DNA of 64,000 bases from Terriglobia bacterium (GCA_965218055.1 CBDCKA010000001.1:840953-904952); one strand, 5' to 3'; shown: positions 11,608-53,600, counted from the first letter of the stretch. Made by a program: numbers and translations. Notes: generated from the sequence alone by a model not told the origin.

Positions 11608-11629
11608 GCCGGCGTGGTAGGATCGCCAC

Positions 11630-12742
11630 ATGTTGGGCCGTCGCAGCTGGGCTGAGGTTTCGCTCGCCCGCCTGCGCTCCAATTTCCAGGCGCTCCGCGC
11701 TCTGGTGGGACCCAAGATCCAGATCCTGGCGGTGCTGAAGGCAGACGCCTACGGCCACGGCTCGGTCGAGGTGGCGGGGGCGCTTGCCGAGGAGGGAGCC
11801 GACTGGTTCGGCGTCACCTGCGCTGCCGAGGCGCTGCCGTTGCGGCAGGCCGGACTCACCCAGCCGATCCTACTGTTCAGCGGCTTCTGGCCGGGCGAGG
11901 AAGAGCTTCTGCTCGACCAACGCCTAACCCCCACAGTGTTTGCCGAGCAACATCTGCGGATGCTCGACGCCTGCGCTCGAAAGCGCGGCGTCCGCCTGCC
12001 TGTTCATCTCAAAGTGGATACCGGAATGGCGCGCTTGGGCATCGCCGCCGCTGAGCTGGCCCCGTTTCTGGCGCTTCTGCGCACCTGCACGCATCTCCAG
12101 CTTGAAGGCCTCTATACCCACATGGCCTCGGCCGAGGAGCCGTCGCTCGAGCAGACCCGCCAGCAACTAGAGTTGTTCGGTAGCATCCAACGGCAGGTGA
12201 AAGAGGTAGGCTTCCACCCGCCCCACATCCATCTAGCCAACAGCACGGCACTGGCCCGCTGCCCCGAATCCTGGGGGACCATGGTGCGGCCGGGGTTGGC
12301 CCTCTACGGCTATCAGCTCTGTGAATCGACGCTGCAGCTGGCGCCGGTGCTGAGCCTGAAGTCGCGCGTGCTAGCCCTGCGATGGGTGCCAAAGGGGACG
12401 GCCGTGGGCTACGGCGCCAGCTACGTGGCGCCGGCCCGGGCGCGGATTGCCACCGTGGGCGCCGGTTATGCCGAGGGTGTCAACCGCGCCCTGTCTAGCC
12501 GCGGCCGCGCTCTGGTGCGCGGCTGCTTCGCCCCGCTGGTGGGCCGCGTCACCATGGACTACACGCTGCTGGATGTGACCGCCATCCCCAACGTCGAGGT
12601 AGGGGATGAGGTGGTGTTCATCGGCTGCCAGGGTGCGGCGGAGATCACCGCTGCCGAAATTGCCGAGTGCGCCGGGACAATCCCTTACGAGATCCTCTGC
12701 AACATCGGCCCCCGCGTCCCCCACCTCTACCTTCCCTCTTGA
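11630..12742 (+). CDS. alr: alanine racemase
   Basis: 370 aa. PLP-lysine motif AVLKADAYGHG and alanine-racemase C-terminal domain. Confidence 0.9.
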   Translation: MLGRRSWAEVSLARLRSNFQALRALVGPKIQILAVLKADAYGHGSVEVAGALAEEGADWFGVTCAAEALPLRQAGLTQPILLFSGFWPGEEELLLDQRLTPTVFAEQHLRMLDACARKRGVRLPVHLKVDTGMARLGIAAAELAPFLALLRTCTHLQLEGLYTHMASAEEPSLEQTRQQLELFGSIQRQVKEVGFHPPHIHLANSTALARCPESWGTMVRPGLALYGYQLCESTLQLAPVLSLKSRVLALRWVPKGTAVGYGASYVAPARARIATVGAGYAEGVNRALSSRGRALVRGCFAPLVGRVTMDYTLLDVTAIPNVEVGDEVVFIGCQGAAEITAAEIAECAGTIPYEILCNIGPRVPHLYLPS

Positions 12743-19989: not shown

Positions 19990-20755
19990 GGCTCGGTTCC
20001 GGCGCCGCAGCCGAAGCTGGTTGCGGTCCTGTGGACACCTGCGACTCCTGCGGCGCAACGTAGTAAAGGATCCGGCCGCAGTTCTCGCAGCGCTGGATCT
20101 GGTCGCTGGTTCTTACCTCCTGGTAGGCCTGAGGGCGCAGCCTCACGTTGCACTCGCCGCAGGTGCCGTCACGTACCTCTGCCACCGCCACCCCTTTGCG
20201 GTGACGCAACAGAGTATCGTAAAAACCCAACACGTCAGGCGAGATTTGCTGACAGTACCCTTCCCGCCGTCGTCGCAGTTCGGTCAGCGCTTCCTCATTG
20301 GCCTGGGTCCGGGCAGTGGCTTCCGTCTTCTCTTTCTCCACCGCCGCGCGCTCACGCGCCAGCTGCCCCTCCGCCTTCCGAACCCGCGCTTCCAGTTCCT
20401 CGGCGGCAATCATCCGCTCCAGGATGGCATCCTCGATCTTGCGAATTTCCCCCTCGGCAAACTCGATCTCGTGCTGGAGCGCTTTATACTGGTCGTTGGT
20501 CTTGACTTCATAAATCTGGTCCTTGTACTTAGAGATTTTCAGCTGGAGCGGCGGGATCTCGCCTTCCAATTTTCGCCGGTCCCGTTGACTGTCGGCCAGG
20601 GTCTGCCGGTCGCTGTCTAGCTGGTGCTGGGCGCCGGCCAGCTTATTTTCAATCTGCTGAATATGCCGGGGCAGATAGGCGATTTCTGCAGAGAGTTGCG
20701 CAATCTGCCTGTCCACAGCCTGCAACTCGATGGCACGCTTCAGGTCCGGATGCAT
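19982..20755 (-). CDS. coiled-coil protein with C-terminal C4 zinc ribbon (COG1579/DUF164-like)
   Basis: Within ORF 19982..20920. Start at MHPDLKRAIELQAVDRQIAQL. Long coiled coil, then CGECNVRL...CENCGRILY zinc ribbon. Confidence 0.7.
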   Translation of the reverse strand: MHPDLKRAIELQAVDRQIAQLSAEIAYLPRHIQQIENKLAGAQHQLDSDRQTLADSQRDRRKLEGEIPPLQLKISKYKDQIYEVKTNDQYKALQHEIEFAEGEIRKIEDAILERMIAAEELEARVRKAEGQLARERAAVEKEKTEATARTQANEEALTELRRRREGYCQQISPDVLGFYDTLLRHRKGVAVAEVRDGTCGECNVRLRPQAYQEVRTSDQIQRCENCGRILYYVAPQESQVSTGPQPASAAAPEPSHG

Positions 20756-20914
20756 GAAATTCCTGTTCGCATACCAAGCTTCCCATATTCTAGCACGTGC
20801 CTGGGCAGACGCAGCCGTCTGTGACAGCTTCTCAACTGTTGCGGAACGGCGCCAGCCAACGAAACGACGCAATGCCCCTAGCCCGAACAGGACGACGGCT
20901 GGTATCGTAGGTGC

Positions 20915-33567: not shown

Positions 33568-33870
33568 CTACTCTGGCAGAATTTCAGCGTCCAGGACCCG
33601 AGGCTGGTCGAGATAATGAGGCAGGGCAAATTCGGCCAGGAAACGCTCCACCTTGATAAACGCCCCGCGCCACTCGCCGGGCTGGTGCGGCTGATCGGCC
33701 GGGTGGCGGCACGGACCGCTGCTGCCGTACTGGTGACCAAAATCACTGCCGACAATCTCGTCGAACTGTTTCAGGCTCTCCCAGGCTTCATCGTCCACAG
33801 TACCACCGAGATCAATTTTTATGCTGATGGTCTGCAACTGCAGTGAACCCTTCACAGCTTCACTTTGCAA
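33568..33870 (-). CDS. hypothetical protein (weak call)
   Basis: 100-aa ORF filling the hemY to YVTN gap on the same strand. No family recognised. May be non-coding. Confidence 0.3.
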   Translation of the reverse strand: MQSEAVKGSLQLQTISIKIDLGGTVDDEAWESLKQFDEIVGSDFGHQYGSSGPCRHPADQPHQPGEWRGAFIKVERFLAEFALPHYLDQPRVLDAEILPE

Positions 33871-33882
33871 GGTACGAACCGG

Positions 33883-35853
33883 TTAGGGCTGGCAGGGTTC
33901 GACGTCGGTGTTGACTGCCAGGGTGGTGAAGGGAGGGCTGCTCACTCCTCCGATGGTGACAATGATGGGCACCGCCGGCCCTGAGGGGGGATTCTCATTC
34001 TCCTCGGGGATGCGGATGTTGATCTGCCACAGCCCAACGAAGCCGGGCGCAGCCCCGCTGAATTCCACAGTGACCGGAACGCCGCCCAGGGTGACCTGAG
34101 GCAACGTGGGGGTCTCCGACAGTGGGCTGGGGGGAGCGGGCTCGCCGGGAGGCAGCTCCGGCGTCAAAACTCCCTGGCCGGAGCCAAACAACTGCACCAC
34201 CGAGCCCGGTTCCGCCGGCTTGACGCCCGTTAGGCAGCCATCCACCGAGACCAGCGAACCATCTTCGTTGAGCGCCGCCACAGGCCCGAACCCGGTCTGG
34301 GCTCCAACGACCGCATCGTCTACCCCGTGGCTATTTGCGAAAAACGCAGTGAAGGTAGTCTCCGTGACCGATATGACTTTGACGACCTCGGCGTTCGTCC
34401 CTGAGCCAACCAAAAGGTATATGCCGGGGTAAATCCCGGCCATGCTAGCTGGCGCTATCGTGGCCAATCCCGAAGAAGCCACCGGCGTATTCAGGGTAGT
34501 GCTTACCACCGGCGATTGCGAAAAAAGGGCAGGACTGGCCACGCCCAGAATGAGCTCCCCTCGCAGCTGACTGCCGCCTGATGTGAAGACAACAAAGGAA
34601 ATAGTCCGCACTTCGCCCACCTGAAGGTCTTGCGCCAGTTCGGCGGGAATTTGGAAATTGATCTGGGTAGGCGAAACGAAAAACAGCGGCGCATTCAGCT
34701 CCGCGCCTCCGATCCCCTTCCCATCCCCACCCATTTCCAGGCGGACCCTGACACCCGCCAGCGTGTCGAGCAGGGGAAAGCCGGTGGCGACCTCGGTTTG
34801 GCTGGCCAAGTCAGTCCCAAAGCCGGAAACGATCATGCCGGGCGCAATGGAGCCGCCATGGAAGGCGGCCGCGTTGACTACCGTAAAGCTGCTGACCACG
34901 GGAATGTCTATGAGGGCGACGCTGTTGTTGGAGGGTAAAACCACTGCCGTCTGGCGCCCCCCCTGGTTGGTCGCCGCCGCGGTCGGCGCCGTTAGGCTGG
35001 CAACCTGCCCGATTATCTGGCTGGTGTTTAAATCCAGAAGTACCGCCTGATTGGTGGTGTTACTAGAGATGACAGCCGTATTGGTACGGATGTGGATAGC
35101 GACCCCCTGCGGAGACCCAATGGGGACTTCTTCGATCTGCCCGGTACCCAACTTCACGATGGAAATGCTGTTCCCATTGGCATTGCACACCACGGCCACG
35201 TTGGTGACGGGATTGACGGCCACGGCCACCGGGGACGCTCCGACCGTCAGAGTACCGACGACGCGCGCCTCCGCCAGATCCACCAGAATAATGCTGTTCT
35301 GCGCCGGGCTGGCCACCACCGCCACGTTGGTGGCGCTGTTGACCGCCACCGCCTGTACGGCGCCCGACAGCACAGCGCCCGGCAGCACCGGTACGTCGGG
35401 AATGGTGCCCACCACGGCTATGGGAGTGTTCAAGTCAATCAGGGACAGGGAGTCGCTACCGGAATTGGAGACTACCGCGATATGGGTGCTGCTGTTGATG
35501 TCCACGCTCAGGGGCCTGCTTTCGACCGGAACGCGGGTGACAACCTGTAGGGTGGCCAAGTCAATCACCGTGACCTCGTTGCTTTCCGAACTAGCCACCA
35601 CGGCCAGGCCCAACTGGTCGTCCACGGCCACCCCACCCGCCGTAGACACCGATTCTCCCAGCGTGCGCAACTCGAGACTAGCCAGGTCGAGCACGCTCAC
35701 CGAGTTGTCGGCGAAACTACCCACAATGAGCTGATTCCCCGACGGGTAAAAAGCCACACCGCGGGGTACCGCACCAACGGGAATCTGCTGCGCTTCTTGC
35801 GCAAGAGCCGACACACTCGCCAGCGCCAGAAAGCAGCAAGCCAGGATCCTCAT
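33883..35853 (-). CDS. secreted YVTN beta-propeller protein with two C-terminal 'Solibacter-type' uncharacterised C-terminal domains
   Basis: Within ORF 33883..35889 (TTG). ATG at 35853 gives the signal peptide MRILACCFLALASVSALA. Repeated ~40-residue units (VAVNPVTNVAVV...), then two copies of the pattern AAAFHGGSIAPGMIVSGFG...FFVSPTQINFQIP, resembling TIGR03437-type domains. Confidence 0.75.
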   Translation of the reverse strand: MRILACCFLALASVSALAQEAQQIPVGAVPRGVAFYPSGNQLIVGSFADNSVSVLDLASLELRTLGESVSTAGGVAVDDQLGLAVVASSESNEVTVIDLATLQVVTRVPVESRPLSVDINSSTHIAVVSNSGSDSLSLIDLNTPIAVVGTIPDVPVLPGAVLSGAVQAVAVNSATNVAVVASPAQNSIILVDLAEARVVGTLTVGASPVAVAVNPVTNVAVVCNANGNSISIVKLGTGQIEEVPIGSPQGVAIHIRTNTAVISSNTTNQAVLLDLNTSQIIGQVASLTAPTAAATNQGGRQTAVVLPSNNSVALIDIPVVSSFTVVNAAAFHGGSIAPGMIVSGFGTDLASQTEVATGFPLLDTLAGVRVRLEMGGDGKGIGGAELNAPLFFVSPTQINFQIPAELAQDLQVGEVRTISFVVFTSGGSQLRGELILGVASPALFSQSPVVSTTLNTPVASSGLATIAPASMAGIYPGIYLLVGSGTNAEVVKVISVTETTFTAFFANSHGVDDAVVGAQTGFGPVAALNEDGSLVSVDGCLTGVKPAEPGSVVQLFGSGQGVLTPELPPGEPAPPSPLSETPTLPQVTLGGVPVTVEFSGAAPGFVGLWQINIRIPEENENPPSGPAVPIIVTIGGVSSPPFTTLAVNTDVEPCQP

Positions 35854-36089
35854 AGCAGCTATTTTGACCTGCCCAACCAGCGCGGACAAGGACGAAAACG
35901 GGCGGCAGGTGAATTACTTTGGCACACTGGCGCCGAACGCCCGGCACTAGGTGGACGGGGCGGCCTCCTCGATTCCATGAGCCGGCAGCAGAGTGATTCG
36001 ATAACGGGCGCGACCGGCGCCCCATCCCGCCTCGTGGAGCAAGCCAGGCAGCGAACCCGCTCGGGAGCCCTAAAATCTCACTCAAATCT

Positions 36090-36178
36090 TTACGAATAAA
36101 AATTTTCGATGGGGGTCATCGGAACGTTCGATTGGCCAGGACACCCCGCCTGTGGTCAACTGTGTAGCCTGAGCGCGA
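36090..36178 (+). promoter_or_regulatory. conserved ~85-nt cis element upstream of PII gene (copy 1)
   Basis: ttacgaataaaaattttcgatgggggtcatcGGAACGTTCgattggccaggacaccccgcctgtggtcaactgtgtagcct. About 85% identical to 37585..37662 upstream of amtB. Contains the palindrome GAACGTTC. Confidence 0.4.
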
Positions 36179-36203
36179 GCGCGTTTGCGGCGCTGGATCA
36201 TAG

Positions 36204-36554
<351 letters not shown>

Positions 36555-36815
36555 CGCTTTTTAACTGTTCTGCGGACAGCCTCAAATCGGCAGCGCTGCT
36601 TTTTGACCGCTGCGCTGGGGCGGCCCTGTGCCCGATGCCCGTGTTTTGTTTCTAGCTCTACTTTCCACACTGGCATAATTGCATAATTATTCCTCATAAT
36701 AGGAAAACCTAATCACGCCGATTCAAAAAACCGTCTTGCTTCGCGCTCCAATTATTCCGTAACGTTAGAGATGACAAACACAAGAGTCGTCACATGAACA
36801 TTAAGGAGACTGACA

Positions 36816-37580
36816 ATGGCAAAACTTTTGGTCCTGGTTTTGGTGGTGCTGGGGACGGTCCCCGCTGCCTGGGCTGGCGAACCAGCTGAGGCTGTGAGCG
36901 AAGCGCCAGCAGAGGACGAAAAGCCTTGGAGTCTGTCTTTCGACAGCACGTTCGTAAACAAGTATATCTGGCGCGGCCAAAACCTGAACAACAACGCGTC
37001 GTTCCAACCCGGAATGTCGTTCAGTTACAAGAACCTCACGATATCTTCGTGGAGTCAATTCTCGCACACGAGCTTTGGCGATAGCGGTGTGGCCGGTAAC
37101 CACTGGACCGAGCATGACCTCACTGTTGACTACGGCTTTGCGCTCAGCGAAAAGTTGTCTTTGAACGTGGGCTGGATTAATTATGCGTTTCCGAACCTGG
37201 GAGAGGACCGCTACACGAACGAGTTCTACGCCGGCATCAGCGCCGACACGATTCTCCAGCCGAGCTTCAGCATCTACGGTGACCCGCATCAGGGCGAAGG
37301 CCTCTACTACAACCTCGGCATCGGTCATGGCCTGGACCTGGGCAACGGCTTCGGTCTCAGCTTGTCAGCTGCGGCCGGTCTGAACCAGGGCCAGTGGATC
37401 GACATCACGACGGTTTCCGATGTTGTGCTCGGGGTCGGCCTAGACATTCCGGTCAGCGATAACGTCACATTGTCCCCGTTCTGGAACTACATCACGGGCA
37501 ATGACAGCCTGAGAAGGGGGCCGGACGGGTTCTTCTTCAGCGGTCACCTTGCAGGGGCGAATCTGAACATCAGTTACTAA
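36816..37580 (+). CDS. predicted outer-membrane beta-barrel protein (copy 1), genetically linked to PII/AmtB
   Basis: 254 aa. Signal peptide MAKLLVLVLVVLGTVPAAWA. Alternating amphipathic beta-strands ending in an aromatic residue (..ANLNISY). 80-90% identical to 39685..40443. Confidence 0.7.
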   Translation: MAKLLVLVLVVLGTVPAAWAGEPAEAVSEAPAEDEKPWSLSFDSTFVNKYIWRGQNLNNNASFQPGMSFSYKNLTISSWSQFSHTSFGDSGVAGNHWTEHDLTVDYGFALSEKLSLNVGWINYAFPNLGEDRYTNEFYAGISADTILQPSFSIYGDPHQGEGLYYNLGIGHGLDLGNGFGLSLSAAAGLNQGQWIDITTVSDVVLGVGLDIPVSDNVTLSPFWNYITGNDSLRRGPDGFFFSGHLAGANLNISY

Positions 37581-37584
37581 TCCC

Positions 37585-37662
37585 CATTCGCGGATAAGAA
37601 TCTCTGATGGCTGTCATCCGAAGGTTCGATTTGCCAGGACACCCCGCCCGTGGTTAACTGCG
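37585..37662 (+). promoter_or_regulatory. conserved ~85-nt cis element upstream of amtB (copy 2)
   Basis: ttcgcggataagaatctctgatggctgtcatccGAAGGTTCgatttgccaggacaccccgcccgtggttaactgcgttgcct. Paralogous to 36090..36178. Confidence 0.4.
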
Positions 37663-37691
37663 TTGCCTAACAATTTGCAGGGGGGAGAACG

Positions 37692-39038
37692 ATGAAGAAA
37701 CGAATTGCAACTCTTCCGCTTTGGGTGGCCGTCGCTGCTCCGGCGCTGCTGGGACAGGAGGCGCCCGATATGGCCCAGCTCCAGGCAGAGATAGCCGCTG
37801 CTCAGTCGGCCGGCGACAACGCCTGGATGTTGGTGTGTTGCGCCCTGGTGCTGATGATGACCGGGCCTGGCCTGCTGTTGTTCTACGGCGGCCTAGTGCG
37901 CAGGAAGAACGTGCTGGGCACCATGATGCAGTGCTTCATTCTCATGGCGGTGATCAGCGTGCTCTGGGCCGTGGTCGGCTACAGTCTTGCCTTCGCGGAA
38001 GGAAACGTGTTTGTGGGCGGCTTGGATCATGTGTTTCTCCGTGGCGTGGGCATGGAACCCAGCGGCTACGCCGGCACCATTCCTCATTACACCTTCATGT
38101 TGTTTCAGCTCATGTTTGCGATCATCACTCCGGCGCTGATCACCGGGGCCTTCGCCGAGCGCATGAAGTTCAGCGCCATGCTGCTGTTCATGGTGCTCTG
38201 GTCGCTGGTTGTCTACGCCCCGCTGGCTCACATGGTGTGGGGCAGTGGCGGGCTGCTGGGCTGGGGAGGGACGATCCCGGCGTTCGACTTTGCCGGCGGG
38301 ACGGTGGTCCACATCTCTTCCGGCGTTTCGGCGCTGGTCTGCGCGCTGTACCTGAAGGGCCGGCTGGGCTACGGGAAGGTGCCGATGCCGCCGCACAGCG
38401 TGGTGTTGAGTATCATCGGCGCTTGCCTGCTGTGGGTGGGCTGGTTCGGATTCAACGCGGGCAGCGCGCTGAACGCCGGAGGCTTGAGTGCGAGCGCCTT
38501 TGCCGCAACGCACTTCGCCACCGCCGCCGCCGTCCTGGGCTGGGTGCTTGCCGAATGGTTGCGCAACGGCAAGCCCGGCGTGTTGGGCGCCATTACCGGG
38601 GCCGTAGCCGGCCTGGTGGCGATCACCCCGGCCGCCGGCTTCGTGACCCCCATGGCAGCCATCTTTATTGGCTTCAGCGCCGGGGTGATCTGCTACCTGT
38701 TTGTCGGAATTCTCAAGCACCGCCTGGGCTACGATGACTCGCTGGACGCCTTCGGCGTGCACGGCGTTGGCGGCACGCTCGGCGCCCTGCTCACCGGGGT
38801 GTTCGCCACCACGGCTGTCAATGCCGACCTGCCACATGGCGGCCTGGTGGACGGCAACCCCGCCCAGATTCTCAACCAGGCCGGCGCCGTGCTGATCACC
38901 TGGGCGTTGGCAGCCGTCGGAACCTTGATTCTGCTCAAGGTGGTGGACCTGCTGATAGGAGTCCGTGTCTCGGAAGCGGATGAAGTGCAGGGTTTGGATA
39001 TTACCCAGCACGGCGAGCAGGGCTACGTCATGGAATAA
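37692..39038 (+). CDS. amtB: ammonium transporter
   Basis: 448 aa. Signal peptide plus 11 TM helices. Amt/MEP motifs (DFAGGTVVH, FGFNAGSAL). Confidence 0.95.
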   Translation: MKKRIATLPLWVAVAAPALLGQEAPDMAQLQAEIAAAQSAGDNAWMLVCCALVLMMTGPGLLLFYGGLVRRKNVLGTMMQCFILMAVISVLWAVVGYSLAFAEGNVFVGGLDHVFLRGVGMEPSGYAGTIPHYTFMLFQLMFAIITPALITGAFAERMKFSAMLLFMVLWSLVVYAPLAHMVWGSGGLLGWGGTIPAFDFAGGTVVHISSGVSALVCALYLKGRLGYGKVPMPPHSVVLSIIGACLLWVGWFGFNAGSALNAGGLSASAFAATHFATAAAVLGWVLAEWLRNGKPGVLGAITGAVAGLVAITPAAGFVTPMAAIFIGFSAGVICYLFVGILKHRLGYDDSLDAFGVHGVGGTLGALLTGVFATTAVNADLPHGGLVDGNPAQILNQAGAVLITWALAAVGTLILLKVVDLLIGVRVSEADEVQGLDITQHGEQGYVME

Positions 39039-39089
39039 ACCTATGCGCCGGCCGGCACTCAAGGGGGCTAAGCCGGCGCTGCATCGTAG

Positions 39090-39440
<351 letters not shown>

Positions 39441-39684
39441 CGCTTTTTAACTGTCCTGCCGCCAAACGTTAGGGTAACGCTCTGAATAGACTTCGTTCCG
39501 CGCCCGAAGCCCGTGTTTTCTATTTAGCTACCTCCAAAAACGCAGGTAATATGGTATTTTCTGGTCATAATAGCAACGCCTGGTCCCATAATTAACAGGA
39601 CACTATTACTTTTACACCACTTTTTACTTAATATTGGAGATTTCGCACAAAGGCTCTATCTAATGAGGTTGGAGGAGAAGAGTT

Positions 39685-40443
39685 ATGAAGCTGATCCCTT
39701 GGGTCATGGCATTGGTGGCCATTACAGTCACTGTGAGCGCCGCAGATTTGCTGGGGCAAGACGCCACACCGGCGCAGGCCGACAAACCCTGGAGCCTGTC
39801 CTTCGACGCCACGTTCGTAAATAAGTATATCTGGCGCGGCCAAAACCTGAACAACAACGCATCCCTCCAGCCCGGACTGGCTTTCACTTACAAGAACCTC
39901 ACGGTTTCTTCGTGGAGTCAATTCTCGCATACAGGCTTCGGCGATAGCGGCGTGGCCGGCAACCACTGGACCGAGCATGACTTCACTGTTGACTACGGCT
40001 TTGCGCTCAGCGAGAAGATCTCTGTGAACGTAGGCTGGATTAATTACGCGTTTCCGAATTTGCAGGATGGCCGCTACACCAACGAGTTCTACGGGGGCAT
40101 CAGCGCCGACACGATTCTCCAGCCGAGCTTCAGCATCTACGTTGACCCGCATCAGGGAGACGGCGTCTACTACAACCTCGGCATCGGTCATGGTCTGGAC
40201 CTGGGCAAAGGCTTTGGTCTCGGTTTGTCAGCTTCGGCTGGCCTGAACCAGGGCCAGTGGATCGACATCACGACGGTTTCCGATGTGGTGCTCGGGGTCA
40301 GCCTAGACGTTCCGGTCAGCGACAACGTCACGTTGTCCCCGTTCTGGAACTACATTACGGGCAATGATAGCCTGAGGACGGGACCGGACGCGTTCTACTT
40401 CAGCGGCCACATCGCGGGGGTGAATCTGAACATCAGCCACTAA
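39685..40443 (+). CDS. predicted outer-membrane beta-barrel protein (copy 2)
   Basis: 252 aa. Signal peptide MKLIPWVMALVAITVTVSA. Paralogue of 36816..37580. Preceded by an AT-rich 245-bp spacer. Confidence 0.7.
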   Translation: MKLIPWVMALVAITVTVSAADLLGQDATPAQADKPWSLSFDATFVNKYIWRGQNLNNNASLQPGLAFTYKNLTVSSWSQFSHTGFGDSGVAGNHWTEHDFTVDYGFALSEKISVNVGWINYAFPNLQDGRYTNEFYGGISADTILQPSFSIYVDPHQGDGVYYNLGIGHGLDLGKGFGLGLSASAGLNQGQWIDITTVSDVVLGVSLDVPVSDNVTLSPFWNYITGNDSLRTGPDAFYFSGHIAGVNLNISH

Positions 40444-40844
40444 TCTCCTCCACTGTATTTCTCCTCCACCGCATAGATCAACATGATCCTGGCCGGCCTG
40501 ATCTTAACCTTCTCTTCGCCCCGTTAGGCGGCCGCACAGTGGCCGACTGTGGCGGTGACATCCTCAGGTTGGTGCTGGCCGCTGAGCTGAAAGCAGCCCA
40601 CACGAACGGGGTTGCCTGCCGACCCAGAGACGGCTGGACGCGCGTTTGCAGACCTGTATCCCACCATTGCCTCCCCGCTTGATTCCTGCAAAGCGTGGGA
40701 TAGTGTAAGATAAGATTGGCTTTTTGTGAGCCAACTCCAGCTGGTGCAGGTCTGCCAGCAGCGCGGACGCAGTGCGAATTATGCCTTCGCTTGCTTTGCG
40801 GCCATGGAAGGACAGGTAGTCGAACTCTAGGGAAACACCGTCTC

Positions 40845-43243
40845 ATGTCCACAGAACTAACCCGACCGCAAAGAGCCACGGAACTGGGCCGACCGCTAGG
40901 AGAGGAGGAGCTTGCCGACGAAGCACTCACCCAGGCACTGTCTCATGCACACGCCCAGAAGACCGATGTGCTGGACCTTCTGGTGGTGGAAAAGAAGTTC
41001 AGCGAGGAGGCGGTGGCCGAAGTCCTTTGCCCGGCGGATGCGGCTGCCCCGGGTCAATCTGGCAGCCACCGTTCCGGAACCGGATGCCATCAAGCTGGTG
41101 CCGGAAGGGATGGCCCGCAGGCACCAAGTCGTGCCCCTGAAACTGGAAAACCGCTCCCTGGTGGTGGCTATGGCCAACCCCGCCAACATGGACGCCCAGC
41201 GTGACATCGAGTTCTCCACCGGAAAGACCCTGAAGATCCTGGTGGCGACCCGCACGGAAATCGTGGACGCGCTGGAGAAGACCTTCGCGACGGGCGAAAT
41301 GCTCAAGGACTTCCTGGAAAATATCAGCGACGTCCACAATTTCGAGCTGGTGGAAGAAAGCAAGGCCGAGGAGGTCGATCTGAAGGATTCTTTGGGCGGA
41401 GCGGAGTTGCCACCGGTGGTGAAGATGGTGAACCTGGTGGTGTACGACGCCATCCGCAATCGGGGCAGCGATATCCACCTTGAGCCGACGGTCAATGATC
41501 TGAAGGTCCGGGTGCGGATCGACGGCGTGATGCGCGAGTTTATGCAGCTTCCCAAGTGGGTGTGCCAGCCTGTGGTCTCGCGCATCAAGATACTGGCAAA
41601 ACTGGACATCGCCGAACGGCGCGTGCCCCAGGACGGCCGCCTGAAGGTGGCCATCGAGGGGCGGAACGTGGACATGCGCGTCTCCACCTTGCCCACCCAC
41701 CTGGGAGAGAAAGTGGTGATGCGCATCCTGGGTTCGGGGCAGGTCCCCAAGATGACTGAGCTAGGCTTTGAATCCGAGGATTTGGAAGCAATCCTGGGAG
41801 CGACGCAGAATCCCCAGGGTATGCTGCTGGTGACCGGCCCCACCGGCAGCGGCAAGACAACCAGCCTCTACTCGTTGTTGAATCATCGCAAGAGCCCGGA
41901 AGTAAACATCATCACTGTAGAAGATCCGGTGGAGTACCAGTTACCGGGGATCAACCAAGTTCAGATCAATCCCAAGGCCGGGTTGACCTTCCCTGCCTGC
42001 CTGCGCTCTAGCCTGCGCCAAGACCCGGACATCATTTTGGTGGGGGAAATCCGAGACCAGGAAACGGCCGAAGTGGCCTTCCACGCCTCAATGACCGGCC
42101 ACCTGGTGCTCTCCACCCTGCACACCAACAGCGCGCCGGCCACCCTCAGCCGCCTGCTGGACCTGGGTGTGGACCCGTTTGTAGTGGGTTCCACGGTGAT
42201 CCTGGTGATGGCCCAGCGACTGGCGCGGGAGGTGTGCCCACACTGCAAAGTAAATTACTCTCCGCCCGAGATGGTGCTGAAGCGTCTGAACCTGCCTGCC
42301 GACGAGGTGTACTTTCGCGGCGCCGGGTGTCCTCAGTGTAGTTTTTCCGGTTTCTCCGGCCGAACTGGCATCTACGAGGTGCTACAGGTGAACCCGGCCG
42401 TGCGCGAGCTATTAACCGAAAAGCGCCGGAAGCGGAAATCCGCAAGGTGGCCGTTCGTAGCGGAGGATTTTCCAGCCTGCTCCAGAAAGGGCTGGCCAAG
42501 GTGAGAGCAGGTTTGACCACGCCGGACGAACTGCTGCGGATCCTTCAGGTCGAAGAAGAGGAGGTAGCCGCCTGTCCAAATTGCCGTGCCCAAATCGACC
42601 CGGATTTCACCGTCTGCCCTTATTGCAGCCGGTCTCTAAAGTCCGTCTGCCGCGAGTGCCGGCAGCAGCTCCGTCCTAAGTGGACAATCTGTCCATATTG
42701 CGGCACTCCCGCTGAGGAGTCAGAAGCGGCGGCCGGGGGGCGGATGCCTTCCTTGGCGGACACAACGGGCTCGGCCATGCCGACTCGTCAGAATCACCCT
42801 CCGACCGCACCGGCCCCCGCCTCGTCCGAGGTCACAGCGGACCGGGCTCAGGCACCTGCTGGCTCCCCTGAGACAACCGCTTCTCCGGGGAAGACACCGG
42901 AAGCCGCTTTCGTTCCGCCCCGTTCCACCAAGCCCCCCAAGCAGGTGAAGATCCTGGTAGTGGACGACGATCCCTCCATCTAGATTGTCCTGCGCAAGAG
43001 CTTGGAGCAACTGCCGTTGCCCTCTGAGATCTTCACTGCCTCCAGTGGAGGAAGTACAGCCGGACCTGATTCTGTTGGACGTGATGATGCCTGAGGTCGA
43101 CGGCTTTACCGTGTGCCAAAAGCTGCGGGAAAACGTGCGCACCACCTTTATCCCCATCATCATGCTCACCGCGAATCCGGATGAAGAAAATCGCACTAAG
43201 GGCTTTCTCGTGGGCACAGACGACTACATGAATAAGCCGTTCC
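40845..43243 (+). pseudogene. GspE/PilB-like secretion ATPase fused to a double zinc ribbon and a receiver (REC) domain; disrupted by 2 frameshifts, 1 in-frame TAG and a 3'-truncating deletion
   Basis: T2SSE_N domain MSTELT...EEAVAEVL then a +1 shift (extra T near 41016-41018) into ARRMRLPRVNLAAT... Walker A GPTGSGKTT and tetracysteine CPHC...CPQC are present. A -1 shift near 42423 (aag|cgcc) restores ...EIRKVAVRSGGFSSLLQKGLAKVRAGLTTPDELLRILQ. That frame runs on without a stop into CPNC..CPYC / CREC..CPYC, a Pro/Ala linker, and KILVVDDDPSI-TAG(42981)-IVLRKSL...DLILLDVMMPEVDGF...YMNKPF. Confidence 0.7.
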
Positions 43244-43244
43244 C

Positions 43245-44100
43245 AGTTTGTCCGGCGGGATACCCGGCCCGTAGTTGCGGACGGAGAAACGCACCCGGCG
43301 ATCGATCTCACAGACTGCGGCTTCCACCGCCGTACCAGCCGGCGCATATTTGATGGCGTTGGAAAGTAGGTTCGTCAGGACTTGTTCCATCCGGTCGCGG
43401 TCCGCCATAACGGGCGACACCGCGCCGGACGGCAAAACCACCAGGTGGATAGAGACCCCCTCTGCATAGGTCCGCAGGCCGTTCATGGCGCGGCGGAGCA
43501 GTTCGAGGGGCTCCAGCAGTTCCAGGTTCAGCTCGGTCTTGCCGGCTTCGATCTTGGAAATATCCAGGATGTCGTTGATCAGCCGGTCCACTGCCGACTG
43601 CCCGATCTCCAGCAACTCTCGCACCGAATCGGTAATTGGTCCAGCGTAGCACCCAGCAACAGATCCAGCGACCCCTTGATCGAGGTCATTGGGGTCCGCA
43701 GCTCATGGGAAGCCACCGAGATGAACTCGTTCTTCATCTCGTCGACTTCCTTAGCCTGAGTGACATCGTTCAACGAGCAGACGTAACCGATCAGGCCGCC
43801 CTCAGGATTGTAGATCGACGCGGTGGTCTGCTCAATGTAGCGGAAATCCGGGCGATGCCACTCATAGACCATCTTGCTGGCAGTTTCCGGGTTGCAGGCG
43901 AGCCGCACTAGTTGTTGTCGCATTCGATCTTCTGGCTCAACCAAGTTCTCCAGCAGGCTGGGAGGAAGGCAGATATGCCTGCCGAGCACAGCGGCCGGGG
44001 AAAGACCGGTCATCTCGCCGATCTTGCGGTTGATCCACACCATCCGCCACTGCGCGTCGCACACGACGACCCCGCTGGGAAGGTTTTCTAGGGCCGTAAA
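43245..44100 (-). pseudogene. PAS-domain sensor histidine kinase, frameshifted and 3'-truncated
   Basis: ORF 43579..44064 gives PAS plus H-box [24 protein letters not shown] frame break near 43600-43630 leads into ORF 43196..43624 (MRELLEIG...DILDISKIEAGK...N-box LLSNAIKYAPAG...G1 box). It ends after GIPPDKL, abutting the truncated receiver on the other strand. Confidence 0.6.
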
Positions 44101-44137
44101 TAGGTTTCCGGTGATAGTTTTCTGTCGGGATCACCTG

Positions 44138-44525
44138 TTATTTCTCTCTGCCCGCGTCTTTCAGAATCTGCCGAATTTGGGCGGTCAGTTGGATGGGGTC
44201 AAACGGTTTGACCAGATAGCCGACCGCGCCGAGCGCCAGCCCTTTCCGAATCTCGGTTTCCTGTGCTTTGGCCGTGAGAAAGATGACAGGGATGTGGCGG
44301 GTGGCCGGATCGGCCTTGAGGCGACGGCAGGTTTCGTAGCCATCCATACGCGGCATCATGGCGTCCAACAAAATCACGTCGGGCCGTTCAGTGCTCACTT
44401 TCTTCAGACACTCCTGGCCGTTGCTGGCCACCACTACTTCCCAATGGCCCTGGAACTGGAAGGCTCATGCGCGCAACTTTCTGAATATCCTCCTCATCTT
44501 CCGCGAGCAACACCTTGTGAATTTC
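44138..44525 (-). pseudogene. CheY-like single-domain response regulator with frameshift
   Basis: MEIHKVLLAEDEEDIQKVARMSL is in one frame. ...VVASNGQECLKKVSTERPDVILLDAMMPRMDGYETCRRLK...VGYLVKPF is in another. Break near 44455-44470. Confidence 0.6.
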
Positions 44526-44536
44526 CATAGGTCGTG

Positions 44537-45937
44537 TCAAGACCCTTCGGTCTCGGGCTGGCGACCGAGGATCGACCGCGCTATCTCCACCAGGGCACGC
44601 GCATCAATGGGCTTGCTGACGAATTTCTCCGCGCCCATGGCCATAGCCTGGCCCGGGTCCTCCACGACCGACATGCGAATCACCGGAATGCTCCGGGTGC
44701 GATCGTTTTGTTTGAGCAGGTGGAGCAATTCAAAGCCACTCATGTCGGGCATGAGTAAATCCAGAGCAATGAGGGCAGGCTGATGGCATTCTGCTATTTT
44801 CCACCGCTTCCTCGCCTCGGTCGACGGCCCAGGCCCGGTAGCTGTTTGCTATTGAAAATGCCGCACATTGCCCGGGCCACGTCCTGGTTGTCGGTTCACC
44901 ACCAGGACGAGGGGAAGAGGCTGCTGCTCGGGGTGCGCCGGGGGCTGTCGCCCCAAGCGTGGCCGCCAACTCTGGCTCAGTGCAGGCCGGGGAGTGTAAA
45001 GAAAAACGTGGAACCCTGCCCGACTCTCGTGTCGAACCAAGATGCGGTCGCCGTGCCGTTCGATAATCGCCCGGGCAATCGCCAACCCCAGGCCCGAACC
45101 CTGGTGCTCCCGGGTCAAAGTATCCTCTGCCTGGGAAAATTTGCTGAAAATTCGCTTTTGAGCCTGCCGAGGAATACCTTTACCCTGGTCGCGCACCGAC
45201 ACCTCCACAAACGGGGCGCCATTCTGCATCACGCGGCGAGCTGCAACGGAGACGGTGGCCCCGCGAGGAGAATACTTGATGGCATTGGAAAACAATGAGC
45301 TGAGAGCTTGTTCCAGGCGCTCCCGATCAGCGTTGGCTGGAGGCAGGTCGGGCTCAATTGGGGCTTCTAGCGCCACATTTTTCTTCTCCGCACTCGCCGA
45401 ATGGCTGTTGAGCTCGTGCTGGATACTCTCCGCCACGGAAATGGGCTCCACGCACAAGGGTAGGCGGCGGGTTTCCAGCTTGAACATGTCCAGAATGCTG
45501 TTAGTTAGCGAGACGAGCCGGTCCGTATTCTTTCCCGCCAGTTCCAGTAGTTCTCGCAATTCGGGAGCCAGCGAACCCGCCGCCCCACCCAGCGCAAGTC
45601 CCAGCCGAACCTTTGATGGCCGTCAGCGGTGTCCGCACGGCACGCTTGGTCGGCTTCCAGCTCGGGGGGACTTTGGACCTGGACCACAGGCATCAAATAA
45701 ACGCGCAAGCTTCCCAGTGCACCGGCCAGCGGGAAAACCAATTCCGCCGTCAACGGGAGTCGTTTGCCGTATAGCAGCCAATTGTTTTTGAAACGCCTCT
45801 GAATCGTGGACGTAGTTTTTGAAAAGGCCAGCAATCTGAGGAAGTTCCAGCTGTTTTAGTTCCTCCGGGTCCAGCTGCGCCAGGTTGGCAGCCCGCTCGT
45901 TCGCCATAGCCTCCATTCTGGACTGCGTCATCTTCAT
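44537..45937 (-). pseudogene. hybrid histidine kinase (HisKA + HATPase + C-terminal REC), at least 5 frameshifts
   Basis: Receiver pieces are spread over three frames within 44750-44880 (LVLVVNDNQDVARAMCGIF / YRAWAVDRGEEAVE / KIAECHQPALIALDLLMPDMSGFELL...). The HATPase is intact (GSGLGLAIARAIIERHG). The H-box ...RTPLTAIKGS is in a different frame from ...LAPELRELLELAGKN (break near 45575-45600). The N-terminal part 45623..45937 is also split across frames. Confidence 0.55.
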
Positions 45938-46529
45938 GGATGCCAGAGGCCGGGTGGTGATAGGGACTTATGGTGCTGAGCTTCCTGGCCTTCGGGGGGG
46001 TTCTGGCCTTGTGGATTCACCTCATTCATGGGAACCCGCCATTTGTTCTCAAAAAGACCAGCCCCGGCCGAAGCCAGCCCCGGAGTTGCAAACCGTTGCT
46101 GATCATACGCAGTGTTCATCGGGAAACAAATTACTGGTGCCGGTTGCGCAGGCACGGCAGCGAGCACCTCGGGCACCCCAACACTGTAGCGGTCTGTTCT
46201 GCATGGCAGGGTTTGCCTCTGGAGCACCGGCATTCCACCAACGCCGCGCTGCTTTAGAGCGATGCCCGGGGCGCGACGGCCCGTCCTCGGCTATTCATCT
46301 TGTCCAGGAGCGGACGACGCGCGCAAGCAGCAGTGCACCAAAGGCAAGTGCGGCCAGTAGGGCGGGCGAGACGGCCGCCAGCACCAGCAGGTCGCGATCC
46401 AGGATCAGCCGATGAGAAACGTGCAGCGAGCTGGCAATCAACAGGACACCCATGGCGAAATAGAGTGAGCGTAACACCTAGGTTGCCATTTTTCCGCCTG
46501 AGCCCATAAGTGGTCAACCAACGCCGAAC

Positions 46530-47474
46530 TTACTGGACGGCCATTTTCGCGGGATTGCTCGCTTGGCCGTCGGTTTGGATCACGACGCCGAGATCGCCCG
46601 AGGGTGCATCAAGCGGCACCACAAGGTTCACCTGGTAGAGCCCCACAAATCCGGGGGCCAAGCCGGAGAAGAGCACTTCGGCAACGATACCGCCCACCGT
46701 CACCACCGGCGGAATCGAGGTGAGAGAGAGCGGAGAAGCCGAGGCGGGCGCTCCCGTGAGCGGGGCGGGAGCGACCGGTCCCAGGCCCGTGGCGTAAACA
46801 ACCACCGGCTCACCCGGCGACGCCGGATTTTCGGGCGTGACAAGCTGGAAGGTCTCATTATGCAGAATGGCGCCTGCCGTGCCGTCGAGGGTAAGAATTC
46901 CCGGCTGGGCGAGCGAAATGTTGACCTCGACCGGATCGCTTAACACGCCGTTGTTGTTAACCACTACGGTCACAGTCGCCTGCCCGGTCAGCTCGTAGGG
47001 AACCTGCAGGTTGATCTGCTCCTGGCCATCCACGGTGGCGACGGTAAACAGCGGCACGGCAATGCCACTCAGCGTCACTGAAGTTCCCTGCAACTCGGTG
47101 GGCAGCGGAAGCTGCTCGGCCAGCACGACGCCGCTCACGTCTGTGGTAATCCCCGTCCCGAAGATGGTGACGATGGCCCCCGGCGTCACACCAGGCACAA
47201 AGCTTGCACCGTTCGCATCAGAAAACGCCGCCTCCTGCACGCTGTGGCAGTGAGAGGACATGGGGAACGCCTCGGTCACCGACACCGCGAAGGGTACATG
47301 TGGTTTCCGGGTGACTCGTGGTGGGTCGAAGAACCAAAACCCGCCGTGCTCTGGCGGGTGAACGGAAGGACCACCGGGACTGCCCATGTCAGTCCCAATC
47401 TGATGCCGATCTACCGCAAGCCGGATGCTGAGCACCTGGACCTGGTGCACCTCCGGGCCGGTGTAGACTCTCAA
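46530..47474 (-). CDS. 'Solibacter-type' C-terminal-domain protein lacking a signal peptide (probable gene fragment)
   Basis: 314 aa. From about residue 80, the pattern VQEAAFSDANGASFVPGVTPGAIVTIFGTGI...LSGIAVPLFTVATVDGQEQINLQVP...APGFVGLYQVNLVVP matches the C-terminal domains of 33883..35853. The N-terminal 80 aa have no signal or TM. Confidence 0.55.
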   Translation of the reverse strand: MRVYTGPEVHQVQVLSIRLAVDRHQIGTDMGSPGGPSVHPPEHGGFWFFDPPRVTRKPHVPFAVSVTEAFPMSSHCHSVQEAAFSDANGASFVPGVTPGAIVTIFGTGITTDVSGVVLAEQLPLPTELQGTSVTLSGIAVPLFTVATVDGQEQINLQVPYELTGQATVTVVVNNNGVLSDPVEVNISLAQPGILTLDGTAGAILHNETFQLVTPENPASPGEPVVVYATGLGPVAPAPLTGAPASASPLSLTSIPPVVTVGGIVAEVLFSGLAPGFVGLYQVNLVVPLDAPSGDLGVVIQTDGQASNPAKMAVQ

Positions 47475-47538
47475 AGCAGCTTGGGCCGATCTCTCGACCT
47501 ACGTTCAGCCTCACTAGCCGCTTGCCGATTGGATGATC

Positions 47539-51574: not shown

Positions 51575-51904
51575 CTATCCGGGGAGAAATTTTTGCGGAT
51601 CGGCCATCATACGACCCAACATTCTGCCTAACTGTTCATACCCGGTGACGATGCGCCTATGCAGATCCTGCGATAAGTAGCCGCAATCACGGGCGAAGTC
51701 GAGCCACACTTGCGTTTCGGTTGCCTCCGCGTCGGCGTCAGCAAGCTTACTCACAAACATACTCGGATATTGCCGCTTTCTGAAGCCTTCGGCGAGGTTC
51801 GCGGCAACGCTGCGTGAGGAGCGGCGTATTTGATCGGTCAAGGAGAAACGCTCATCCCTGGGGAATACCTTAGCCGGAATTTCCATTTTGAGCTTCCCCT
51901 TCAC
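51575..51904 (-). CDS. four-helix-bundle protein (23S rRNA intervening-sequence protein / Avd family), possibly N-terminally truncated
   Basis: 109 aa. ...FPRDERFSLTDQIRRSSRSVAANLAEGFRKRQ...WLDFARDCGYL matches the PF05635 core. The usual N-terminal helix (about 30 aa) is absent; an in-frame stop lies immediately upstream. Confidence 0.75.
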   Translation of the reverse strand: MKGKLKMEIPAKVFPRDERFSLTDQIRRSSRSVAANLAEGFRKRQYPSMFVSKLADADAEATETQVWLDFARDCGYLSQDLHRRIVTGYEQLGRMLGRMMADPQKFLPG

Positions 51905-52049
51905 CCGAAAACCTATGCCTCGTACCCTGTCGTGTCAATCGCAAATCGCCCGGGCCTCTTTGAGGTGGTAGTGCGGCACATTTTGGCTGTTCTTCGGAGT
52001 CGCTGTGCGGGTTTCGCCTGCCCAGCCTGCCTCGCCGCTGACACTTGTC

Positions 52050-53600
52050 CGGCCCGACCACTTCTGAGCACCTAAAATTACCCTCTCTCCTGGGTCGCTA
52101 GCCGTCTGGCAGCGGCAGTGCCGAGATCGTTCGCAGCATGCTGCTGAACAGCCTCCGGCTCAAGTGCCCTTCGGCCAGCAAAAGCCAGTAATATCGTGCA
52201 TGTTTCACCAGCCGTCCGCCCGTTTTCACCAGCCGCTGCTGCAAACTCGTCAGCGACCAGTTGTTGATCCTCTTCGGTAGCACCAGCCGCCGCCACAGGT
52301 TTCCCAAGTTGTAGGCGATCAGGCTCAGCCATAGGCGCACCTCGTTCGACCGAAACCGATGGCAACTCAGCCGGGTCATCTTTACCGCCTGCTTGCCTTC
52401 CTTGATCCATTGCTCTGCGGTGCCCCGCTTGTTGTAGAACCGGACCACCGCCCGGCTGTCGGTCTCCAGATTGGTGACGATGAACCCCACGCGAGGGAAC
52501 AGTTCGCCAAAGTGGAACTCCACCTTCGCCACCACCCGCCGCGCCTTTTTCCAACTGGCTGCCTGGTAGAGAAAGCTCTTGTACCAGACCACCGGCTTGT
52601 GGCTCGGTCGCCCCACTGACCGCGTCAACAACTCCGCGATGTCCCTCTCCAGACTGTCGTTGGCCGGGATGCGAATCGCATACTTCACGTCCCGCTCCTC
52701 CAGTGCGTCGTAGATCTCCGGCTTGGCGAAGGCGGCGTCGGCGCGAAACACCGCTTCCTTGCCCAGCTTCTGCTGCCGTTCGATCTCTGGCAGGAGAAGT
52801 TCTTCCCAATCCTCGGCGCTGTGCACGTTGCCGGGTCGCAGCTTGGCCGCCAGACAGTCACCCTCGCGACTGAACAGCAACAACGGGTGATAGCAACTCG
52901 ACTCGAAATGCCCGTTGTAGGCGCTCTGTTCCTGCTCCCCGTAGACCGGGATCTCGGTGCTGTCCATGTCCAGCACCACCCGGCGCGGCGCATCCATAGC
53001 TTCCGCCCTGGCGATCAAATCCCGGTTGATCGCTGCCAAACCAGCAAGGTTCTCGTCTTGCGTCAGCAGTTCTGTCTCGAACGACTGTAACCGGGAAGTC
53101 AGGGCTGCGCCACGTTCCCAGATCTTCTCCGAACCGATCAGCCGGAACGTCGGATCTTGGGAAAGCCGCTCGGCGTCGTTGACGTCTTCGTATCCTGCCA
53201 AGCGGCTGTAGATGGACTGCCGCAGCAAGTCAGCGAGGGGCAACCGGGTGTTCTTCCCCCGAGAGTCGATCAAGTGCTGTTCGATAAGTTCGCCGAACCC
53301 CAAACGTTCGTCCAACTCGCGCACCAGAATCAGACCGCCGTCGGAAGTGATTCGCGATCCCTGAAATGTGACCCGCAGAAACCGGTTGAATGACAGTTGA
53401 AACGCCTGTTTTTGGCTCTCACCCATTCGGTGTACACCTCCGGAAGGCAATGTTGATGCTGGAACCCGCATCAATACTGACGTTGGAGTCATTCAGAAGG
53501 TTGCCGCCGATAGTTCATAAAGGAAATCCGGGCTTAGAATGCTGGAAGACCTCCATCGCTAGCTTGTACGCCAGTTGATAAGCTTTCAGATCCCGATGTC
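52050..53600 (-). mobile_element. IS1380-family insertion sequence (ends approximate)
   Basis: Single DDE transposase ORF with about 100-170 bp of flanking non-coding sequence. It sits between the Avd-like gene and the gspD 3' end. The terminal inverted repeats could not be defined confidently by eye. Confidence 0.55.
52098..53426 (-). CDS. IS1380-family DDE transposase
   Basis: Within ORF 52098..53492. Start MGESQKQAFQLSFNRFLRVTFQGSRITSDGGLILVRELDERLGF is the characteristic IS1380 transposase N-terminus. DDE region ...VVLDMDSTEIPVYGEQE... Confidence 0.85.
   Translation of the reverse strand: MGESQKQAFQLSFNRFLRVTFQGSRITSDGGLILVRELDERLGFGELIEQHLIDSRGKNTRLPLADLLRQSIYSRLAGYEDVNDAERLSQDPTFRLIGSEKIWERGAALTSRLQSFETELLTQDENLAGLAAINRDLIARAEAMDAPRRVVLDMDSTEIPVYGEQEQSAYNGHFESSCYHPLLLFSREGDCLAAKLRPGNVHSAEDWEELLLPEIERQQKLGKEAVFRADAAFAKPEIYDALEERDVKYAIRIPANDSLERDIAELLTRSVGRPSHKPVVWYKSFLYQAASWKKARRVVAKVEFHFGELFPRVGFIVTNLETDSRAVVRFYNKRGTAEQWIKEGKQAVKMTRLSCHRFRSNEVRLWLSLIAYNLGNLWRRLVLPKRINNWSLTSLQQRLVKTGGRLVKHARYYWLLLAEGHLSRRLFSSMLRTISALPLPDG

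Follow-up and report, generated by a model that had tools for sequence, protein, structure and literature searches.

Probable remains of a recently inactivated five-gene regulatory module in a Terriglobia genome, with single-base frameshifts on a 47.8-nucleotide lattice

Introduction

In Mycobacterium leprae, Rickettsia and Salmonella serovars, dispensable accessory genes are known to decay into pseudogenes and then to be lost by deletion, and bacterial insertions and deletions (indels) are usually biased toward deletion. Here we analyse a tract of broken genes in a 64,000-nucleotide (nt) stretch of DNA from a Terriglobia bacterium (GCA_965218055.1, CBDCKA010000001.1:840953-904952), called the window throughout, with positions counted from its first letter. 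Alignment with orthologous loci identifies window 40845-46029 as the remnants of five genes, which originally encoded an ATPase with MshEN, T2SSE, zinc-ribbon and REC domains (gene 1), a DnaJ-domain protein, a PAS histidine kinase (HK2), a REC protein (REC3) and a PAS hybrid kinase (HK4). We conclude, with a probability of about 0.8, that the tract represents the remains of an accessory module, originally of five genes, which recently lost its function in this Terriglobia lineage and is being erased. As in the decay described from M. leprae, Rickettsia and Salmonella, the lesions cluster in one functionally linked set of genes, relatives range from intact through damaged to deleted, and the lineage shows a GC>AT bias, nearby insertion sequence (IS) activity and short-homology deletions. 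The tract differs from those cases in that insertions outnumber deletions 12:2, the single-base indels are phased at 47.8 nt, there is one nonsense substitution, and two small inversions (~48 and 53 bp) occur without flanking inverted repeats.

The MshEN domain (PF05157) has been reported to bind cyclic diguanylate (c-di-GMP). Gene 1 resembles MshE/PilB/GspE-type ATPases in its strong Pfam matches, Walker A motif and zinc motif, and is unlike them in carrying a C-terminal double zinc ribbon and REC domain, in sitting among kinases and a DnaJ gene rather than pilus or secreton genes, and in being a pseudogene in this genome; an ordinary type II secretion system (T2SS) cluster, which includes a GspE of its own, is found at the 3′ end of the window. 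The module resembles two-component phosphorelays in the canonical domain orders of its intact relatives, whereas the window lacks the H-box histidine of HK4, the end of the HK2 ATPase domain and part of the gene 1 REC domain. Judged from its domain content, the intact module may have been a phosphorelay feeding a REC-gated ATPase, possibly one responsive to c-di-GMP.

Residual indel errors in long-read metagenome assemblies have been assessed through frameshift-truncated proteins, measured with IDEEL (PMC13087279). The single-base indels described here resemble such errors in being +1 or -1 changes in short homopolymers or doubled bases, and most of the contigs are of long-read style. Unlike those errors, which are scattered and coverage-dependent, the present indels lie within 6.5 kb, are shared between haplotypes at 19-44x coverage and are phased at 47.8 nt.

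Results

Domain content and extent of the module

Syntenic loci from several ENA long-read assemblies were gathered by exact look-up of the neighbouring 252-amino-acid (aa) beta-barrel protein and its 90% cluster. In L026, L027 and L028, gene 1 (814 aa) and the DnaJ gene (258 aa) come first, and three genes convergent to them follow: HK2 with 360 aa, REC3 with 129 aa and HK4, which has 515 aa in L028. The Acidobacteria metagenome-assembled genome (MAG) L002 encodes an uninterrupted 829-aa MshEN-T2SSE-zinc ribbon-REC protein. The corresponding features of the window are as follows.

40739 to 46199, no strand: module extent, the stretch missing from L032 and L034, which join 40738 to 46200 through ~140 bp
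40845 to 43242, + strand: pseudogene 1, MshEN - T2SSE (GspE/PilB/MshE-type) - double zinc ribbon - REC, from Pfam and the homologues in L002, L027 and L028
43243 to 44134, - strand: pseudogene HK2, a 3′-truncated PAS-HisKA-HATPase_c kinase, from Pfam and the 360-aa orthologues in L026, L027, L028 and L033
44138 to 44528, - strand: REC3, a single-domain response regulator of 129 aa, whose sole lesion in this contig is the +1 at 44460-61
44537 to 46029, - strand: pseudogene HK4, a PAS-HisKA-HATPase_c-REC hybrid kinase (515 aa in L028)

Listing of open reading frames (ORFs) together with Pfam searches on the window recovered fragments of four genes. On the + strand these are MshEN and T2SSE in a 530-aa ORF, followed by the double zinc ribbon and then a partial REC; on the - strand they are PAS-HisKA and HisKA-HATPase_c fragments of HK2, the REC of REC3, and HATPase_c and REC pieces of HK4. 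The Pfam profile coverage ends at ORF ends (REC 38-101/111, HATPase_c 2-55/111, HisKA 1-29/66, REC 27-110 and 52-110), and because the domains stop where the ORFs stop, the frame breaks lie inside genes and not between them. Gene 1 matches T2SSE (PF00437, 2.2e-126, profile 5-336/370), MshEN (PF05157, 2.4e-22), DZR and REC, with the Walker A motif GPTGSGKT and the zinc motif CxxC...CxxC legible in the sequence; of the features expected in the T2SSE family, the ATPase core and MshEN are present and an uninterrupted frame for the whole protein is absent.

A first-pass annotation of the window had described every gene in the tract as broken, which is borne out both by domains that end at ORF ends and by the lesions seen against orthologous loci. 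The gene content that it proposed (an ATPase-REC fusion, a PAS kinase, a regulator and a hybrid kinase) agrees with Pfam, while its count of four fell short by a fifth gene, the 258-aa DnaJ gene, which is deleted outright. Its end point of 45937 was mistaken: the ATG at that position lies inside an inverted segment, and the true end is at 46029, boundary mapping having placed the ATG of HK4 at 46027-46029. No direct or inverted repeats were found at the presence/absence boundaries 40738 and 46200, and no sign of a mobile element was seen there; IS copies on both sides of the module occur in L033 only. Searches for Rfam families and tandem repeats across 39.5-48 kb returned none.

Lesions in the four remaining genes

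Lesions were read from an alignment of the window with L004, L006, L027 and L028, and with L033, L005 and L001 where these overlap. Relative to its relatives, the window has 14 single-base indels, of which 12 are insertions and 2 deletions; it further carries a stop codon from a CAG>TAG change, a 53-bp inversion, and larger deletions that measure 23, 66 and 1052 bp. The +1 insertions are at 41020, 44118-21, 44460, 44797-800, 44845-47, 44893-94, 44940-44, 44989-92, 45039-40, 45605, 45652 and 45755, and the -1 deletions at 42407 and 43649. The lesions are listed here in order of position.

41020 to 41021, + strand: +1 insertion, GAG>GAAG, in this contig only and not in L004, L036 or any relative
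42406 to 42407, + strand: -1 deletion, GAGGC>GAGC, common to L004 and L036
42981 to 42983, + strand: in-frame TAG, which is CAG in relatives (a C>T transition)
43043 to 43044, + strand: junction of the 23-bp deletion, by which the REC domain loses DGREALEQ close to its beginning, with a change of frame
43242 to 43243, no strand: junction of the 1052-bp deletion, from the orthologous-locus alignment
43649 to 43650, - strand: -1 deletion in the HisKA of HK2, with the same frameshifted tail in P0139 (Logan, ENA), P0140 (L036) and P0136 (L004)
44118 to 44121, - strand: +1 insertion toward the HK2 N terminus, where TTT has become TTTT, from the alignment
44797 to 45040, - strand: six +1 insertions in HK4, spaced 46.5-49 nt, each of which lengthens a homopolymer or duplicates a base
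45605 to 45757, - strand: three more +1 insertions in HK4 (45605-06, 45652-53 and 45755-57), from the alignment
45637 to 45638, - strand: junction of the 66-bp deletion in HK4, by which the H-box is lost together with the phospho-accepting His (SHELRTP; ...EFLSTISHE)
45909 to 45961, no strand: 53-bp inversion relative to L005, L006, L027 and L028, which destroys the initial strands of the PAS domain in HK4

The first-pass annotation had counted at least about 10 single-base frame corrections plus one TAG, which the alignment bears out with its 14 indels and the TAG at 42981. Individual placements fared less well: what had been taken for an extra T near 41016-41018 is an extra A at 41020-21, and a missing G, rightly noticed as a lost base, belongs at 42406-07 and not at 42423.

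Intact, gene 1 has 814-829 aa, and its orthologue-frame translation in the window is 82.7% identical to that of L028. Its last 20 codons, including the stop, are gone with the 1052-bp deletion, which also takes the entire 258-aa DnaJ gene and, from the convergent HK2, the final ~59 codons; in L027, GTTCAGC stands at each edge of the stretch that corresponds to this deletion, a short junction homology. The HATPase_c domain of HK2 is incomplete, with profile positions 2-55/111 left and ~59 C-terminal residues gone, and HK2 additionally carries in-frame changes of 9 and 3 bp. Without the extra base at 44460, which is a member of the lattice described below, REC3 is a complete 129-aa protein, 86% identical to that of L028. 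In HK4, the 53-bp inversion has put the PAS segment LDCVIFMDASGRVV on the + strand and created the false ATG at 45937. When the single-base indels are undone, all four remaining genes are open in the orthologue frame with the TAG at 42981 as the sole stop, and the remnants are 81-86% identical to relatives in this frame at the amino acid level.

Even with the single-base frameshifts set aside, no fewer than three of the four genes that remain are dead: gene 1 because of its nonsense codon, 23-bp deletion and missing 3′ end, HK2 because it has lost ~59 C-terminal residues of its ATPase domain, and HK4 because it lacks its phospho-acceptor His and carries an inverted stretch in its PAS domain. 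The status of REC3 depends on whether the lattice insertions are real. Two other candidate explanations were rejected. Programmed frameshifting or recoding finds no common motif at the sites, and the real frame terminates at a TAG at 44849; selection keeping an ORF open through the run of six insertions is countered by the ORF itself, which stops after the fourth.

The flanks were compared with L032, L028, L005 and L001 over ~30-40.7 kb and 46.5-51.5 kb, where indels that are not multiples of three are all intergenic or compensated within a few bases. In the rest of the window, long ORFs with high GC content at third codon positions tile continuously. Because the comparable flanks are without uncompensated coding frameshifts and the ORF tiling elsewhere is continuous, the clustering of lesions in the tract is far beyond chance, and the contrast with clean surroundings drawn in the first-pass annotation is upheld. 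Elsewhere, a single-base indel at ~12732 in L032 splits a UDP-glucose dehydrogenase gene that is whole in L034, and another at ~4749 in L034 splits a beta-propeller gene that is whole in L032; isolated frameshifts in apparently functional genes thus occur in related assemblies.

State of the module in relatives

The syntenic genes of L027, L028, L033 and L006 have 85-90% nt identity to the window and are largely intact, L006 (a 3.9-kb contig, ~90% nt) being the nearest largely intact relative. L027 has the complete gene set with a TAA nonsense codon in HK4, and L028 the complete set with a TAG nonsense codon in the DnaJ gene. HK4 is split in two in L033, where IS copies flank the module, and L006 carries a +2 frameshift and a 108-bp deletion within the module. 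The equivalent of window 40631-45341 (4.7 kb) is deleted in L005, and 40739-46199 is wholly absent from L034 and from L032, a circular 4.4-Mb contig. Since relatives have lost or damaged it independently, the module would appear to be dispensable in the clade. A first inactivating hit would have left the whole of it neutral.

A search of species-representative genomes gave only L001 (88% nt), which is informative for two lesions only. It departs from the locus at window 42435, inside gene 1, and runs into a Solibacter-type domain ORF, a break explained either by a chimeric end of the contig or by a rearrangement that arose independently. At 11515-12338 of L001 (MAG JAKZXP010000014), the ATPase continues in frame into this Solibacter-type Ig-like domain ORF, which is itself frameshifted. 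A scan of Joint Genome Institute (JGI) metagenomes for closer relatives with the intact hybrid kinase P0001 returned nothing above 45% identity. In L033, the two flanking IS copies (DDE_Tnp_1_4, at 11229-12557 and 20432-20759) enclose the whole module in a composite-transposon-like arrangement, and a transposase related to this IS lies at window 52134-53538 (78% nt).

Substitution pattern on the window branch

The window branch has a transition:transversion ratio of 102:33 (3.1), compared with 49:28 and 111:70 (1.6-1.75) on other branches, and GC>AT changes number 75 on it versus 27 AT>GC. Omega is ~0.42 on the window branch and 0.31 on the L006 branch. The pattern is a weak signal of relaxed constraint on the window branch, in the direction expected, and fits recent inactivation. 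The rise in omega corresponds to ~33 neutral substitutions in 2.5 kb since inactivation, relative to which the single-base indels stand at ~1:3. The decay is young, since the frames stay open once the indels are undone and omega is only ~0.42.

Sister haplotype contigs

L004 (13.3 kb at 19x) and L036 (part of a 1.31-Mb contig at 44x), both from ENA analysis ERZ25067264, are 99.0-99.6% identical to the window and have every lesion in common with it except the +1 at 41020. A fourth variant with the frameshifted HK2 tail is represented by P0139 (Logan and ENA), and the lesions are common to three to four haplotype contigs. The window belongs to a contig of 1,247,849 bp recorded by NCBI and ENA; proteins P0141 and P0144 are identical to ORFs of the window. 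The single-nucleotide polymorphisms (SNPs) between L004/L036 and the window comprise 18 transitions and 1 transversion, and single-base indels stand at ~1:4 relative to SNPs (34606-47370), a spectrum that resembles mismatch-repair deficiency. Between haplotypes, SNPs are ~3x denser in the module than in the flank upstream of it, and no single-base indels were found in intact genes at 33.6-40.8 kb, where the near-identical haplotypes overlap. L004 and L036 also share a rearrangement that the window lacks.

44133 to 44181, no strand: ~48-bp segment inverted in L004 and L036, the window having the orientation of all outgroups; no flanking inverted repeats

This segment spans the start codon of HK2 and the last codons of REC3, and its inversion also removes the REC3 C-terminus in L004 and L036. 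An IS is inserted in L036 at 44088-91, while the IS at window 51874-53532 (transposase ORF 52098-53492, - strand) is absent from the 99.6%-identical L036; private single-base indels lie at 46662 in L004 and at 45896 in L036. Because their SNPs, IS content, ~48-bp inversion and private indels differ, L004, L036 and the window are distinct molecules.

Several further differences were observed around these sites. The window IS at 51874-53532 appears to split a small gene, whose equivalent at L036 1255-1626 has Pfam matches to bAvd and 23S_rRNA_IVP. The private indel of L004 is an extra C at 46662, inside the Solibacter-domain gene toward its 3′ end (288 aa vs 314 aa), and the window is one base short at 47520 (intergenic) relative to L004, L005 and L032. 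About 32 of the 37 differences of L036 over window 33578-44091 are concentrated in 260 bp of a beta-barrel gene (39982-40242), a patch that looks like a short recombination or gene conversion, possibly from a paralogous copy. The unit of ammonium transporter, P-II and 252-254-aa beta-barrel genes is duplicated in the window (36190-40445), and in ENA ERZ21829562 contig ctg257395l (L024-L027) at least 5 tandem copies of a 3218-bp transporter/P-II/beta-barrel unit stand directly upstream of the module.

Periodicity of the single-base indels

All 17 of the 17 single-base indels of the lineage between 41020 and 47520 fit a 47.80-nt lattice with a Rayleigh R of 0.93, the maximum among 400 random sets being 0.75, and the lattice keeps its phase across 6.5 kb, or 136 periods. 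Taken by themselves, the 11 insertions at 44118-45757 give a period of 47.9 nt with R 0.90 (p ~0.002 after a scan of periods 20-120), and five consecutive gaps among them are equal within 4 nt, which occurred in 0 of 200,000 random placements of 11 points. The six added indels (41020, 42407, 43649, 45896 in L036, 46662 in L004 and the -1 of the window at 47520) each lie at most 1.2 nt off the lattice. Each insertion lengthens a homopolymer or doubles an adjacent base, and the phase is identical in three contigs with unrelated coordinates and 19-44x coverage.

Substitutions, SNPs, larger indels, IS ends and inversion ends showed no phasing on the lattice, and 51 older single-base indels of the flanks are unphased (R 0.07); indels between L032 and L034 gave no lattice signal, from 7 events only. 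No ~48-nt periodicity was found in the sequence itself, and in homopolymer-compressed coordinates the fit is poorer (R 0.77 vs 0.93). Adding the deletions back, to give ancestral coordinates, brings no gain, and since R falls when the 66- or 23-bp deletion is restored, the lattice is defined on the present-day sequence. The 1052-bp deletion measures 22.007 lattice periods with its junction half a period off the lattice, and the polymorphic ~48-bp inversion is about one period long with its end points off the lattice.

This phasing bears on how the frameshifts arose. That ordinary decay produced all of them and the lattice is a coincidence is scarcely credible: homopolymer-type +1/-1 slips are indeed the commonest natural indels, but the run of near-equal gaps never appeared among the random placements, the observed R exceeds that of every random set, and the 12:2 insertion bias is opposite to the usual bacterial deletion bias. 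The 14 single-base frameshifts are thus not explained by ordinary decay.

We give even odds, or slightly better, to an account in which the module is dead and its large lesions are real, and most or all of the single-base indels are consensus or sequencing errors added by a processing step that works in units of ~48 bases. It would explain why every one of the 17 indels is in phase, why the four haplotype-specific ones (41020, 45896, 46662 and 47520) land within 1.2 nt of the same lattice, and why this lattice fits the sequence as it stands after the 66- and 23-bp deletions; SNPs, larger indels and the older flank indels are unphased, the sequence has no ~48-nt periodicity of its own, all frames open once the indels are undone, and the L032 and L034 assemblies carry frameshifts in apparently functional genes. 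The lattice itself looks computational, having an arithmetic phase over 136 periods that is obeyed by new events in separate haplotypes. Against such an artefact, the same genomic phase appears in three contigs at 19-44x and is anchored to neither contig nor read, the -1 at 43649 is seen again in a protein with a further record from a Logan assembly, and where the near-identical haplotypes overlap at 33.6-40.8 kb, the intact genes are free of such indels. Read-level support likewise hints that at least some of the single-base indels are real. The contig names suggest assembly by metaMDBG or nanoMDBG, which use 500-nt polishing windows and a minimizer density of 0.005, or ~200 nt apart (PMC11392814, PMC13087279). 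A step of these assemblers was rejected as the source of the lattice, since the published window and minimizer units offer no 48-nt unit.

A biological origin is unlikely in the form that all lesions are real mutations and that single bases are gained or lost at phased positions through a process with a ruler of ~47.8 bp, possibly in a mismatch-repair-deficient background, whose traces survive only where selection has lapsed. The common lattice indels (42407-45757) all lie inside pseudogenes and the haplotype-specific ones in a pseudogene, in intergenic DNA or near a gene 3′ end; the indels are common to three to four haplotypes, the 18:1 transitions and the indel:SNP ratio of ~1:4 are mutator-like, and no documented assembler step fits. 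On the other side, new events that arose independently in different haplotypes land on one and the same lattice, indels between genes in other parts of the window show no phase, and the end points of the inversion and deletion are off the lattice; moreover, we know of no biological ruler or process that holds phase to ~2 nt over 136 periods. Stated more specifically, as a real process that adds, and rarely removes, one base every ~47.8 bp over at least 6.5 kb, recurs in sister haplotypes and is visible only in unselected DNA, with the ~48-bp inversion and the 1052-bp deletion perhaps belonging to it, the idea is quite unlikely.

The first-pass annotation had left the choice between pseudogenisation and a quality problem. 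Pseudogenisation is supported by the large lesions, the TAG and the relatives, while a quality problem could still account for the single-base frameshifts, given the 12:2 bias, the ~1:3 ratio to neutral substitutions and the lattice. A purely local quality problem or misassembly, with all five genes intact in the organism, is very improbable. In its favour, the lattice is a sign that a non-biological influence may have been at work on this stretch, and the deletion and polymorphic inversion come close to whole numbers of its periods; but deletions have short junction homology, a simple C>T change accounts for the nonsense codon, both omega and the substitution spectrum shift toward neutrality, relatives from four other assemblies have independently lost or damaged the module, and the contigs, otherwise clean, have 19-44x coverage.

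Discussion

The best-supported reading of the tract is a real, recent and ordinary loss of genes; assembly error does not explain the nonsense codon, the short-homology deletions, the shift in substitution spectrum or the pattern across the clade. Several points weigh against it. L004 and L036 belong to one ENA assembly, so that their agreement is not fully independent, and the case is built on assembled contigs. The indel lattice, the bias toward +1 and the ratio of single-base indels to neutral substitutions misfit plain decay, and 5 kb contain only one nonsense substitution. Finally, unless the deletion of 22.007 periods and the inversion of about one are coincidences, the larger lesions could share the unexplained origin of the lattice, though their ends are off it.

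The meaning of the lattice differs with its source. Should it be technical, then phased frameshifts that recur across haplotypes and mimic pseudogenes can occur in public long-read metagenome contigs at 19-44x, and pseudogene counts would be inflated by an undocumented step; if it is real, it would be a mutational signature without a known mechanism. The loss of the module as biology is useful and unsurprising: it offers a clean example of how a dispensable regulatory module disappears, represented within one clade by intact, nonsense-mutated, IS-flanked, lesion-riddled, mostly deleted and fully deleted states.

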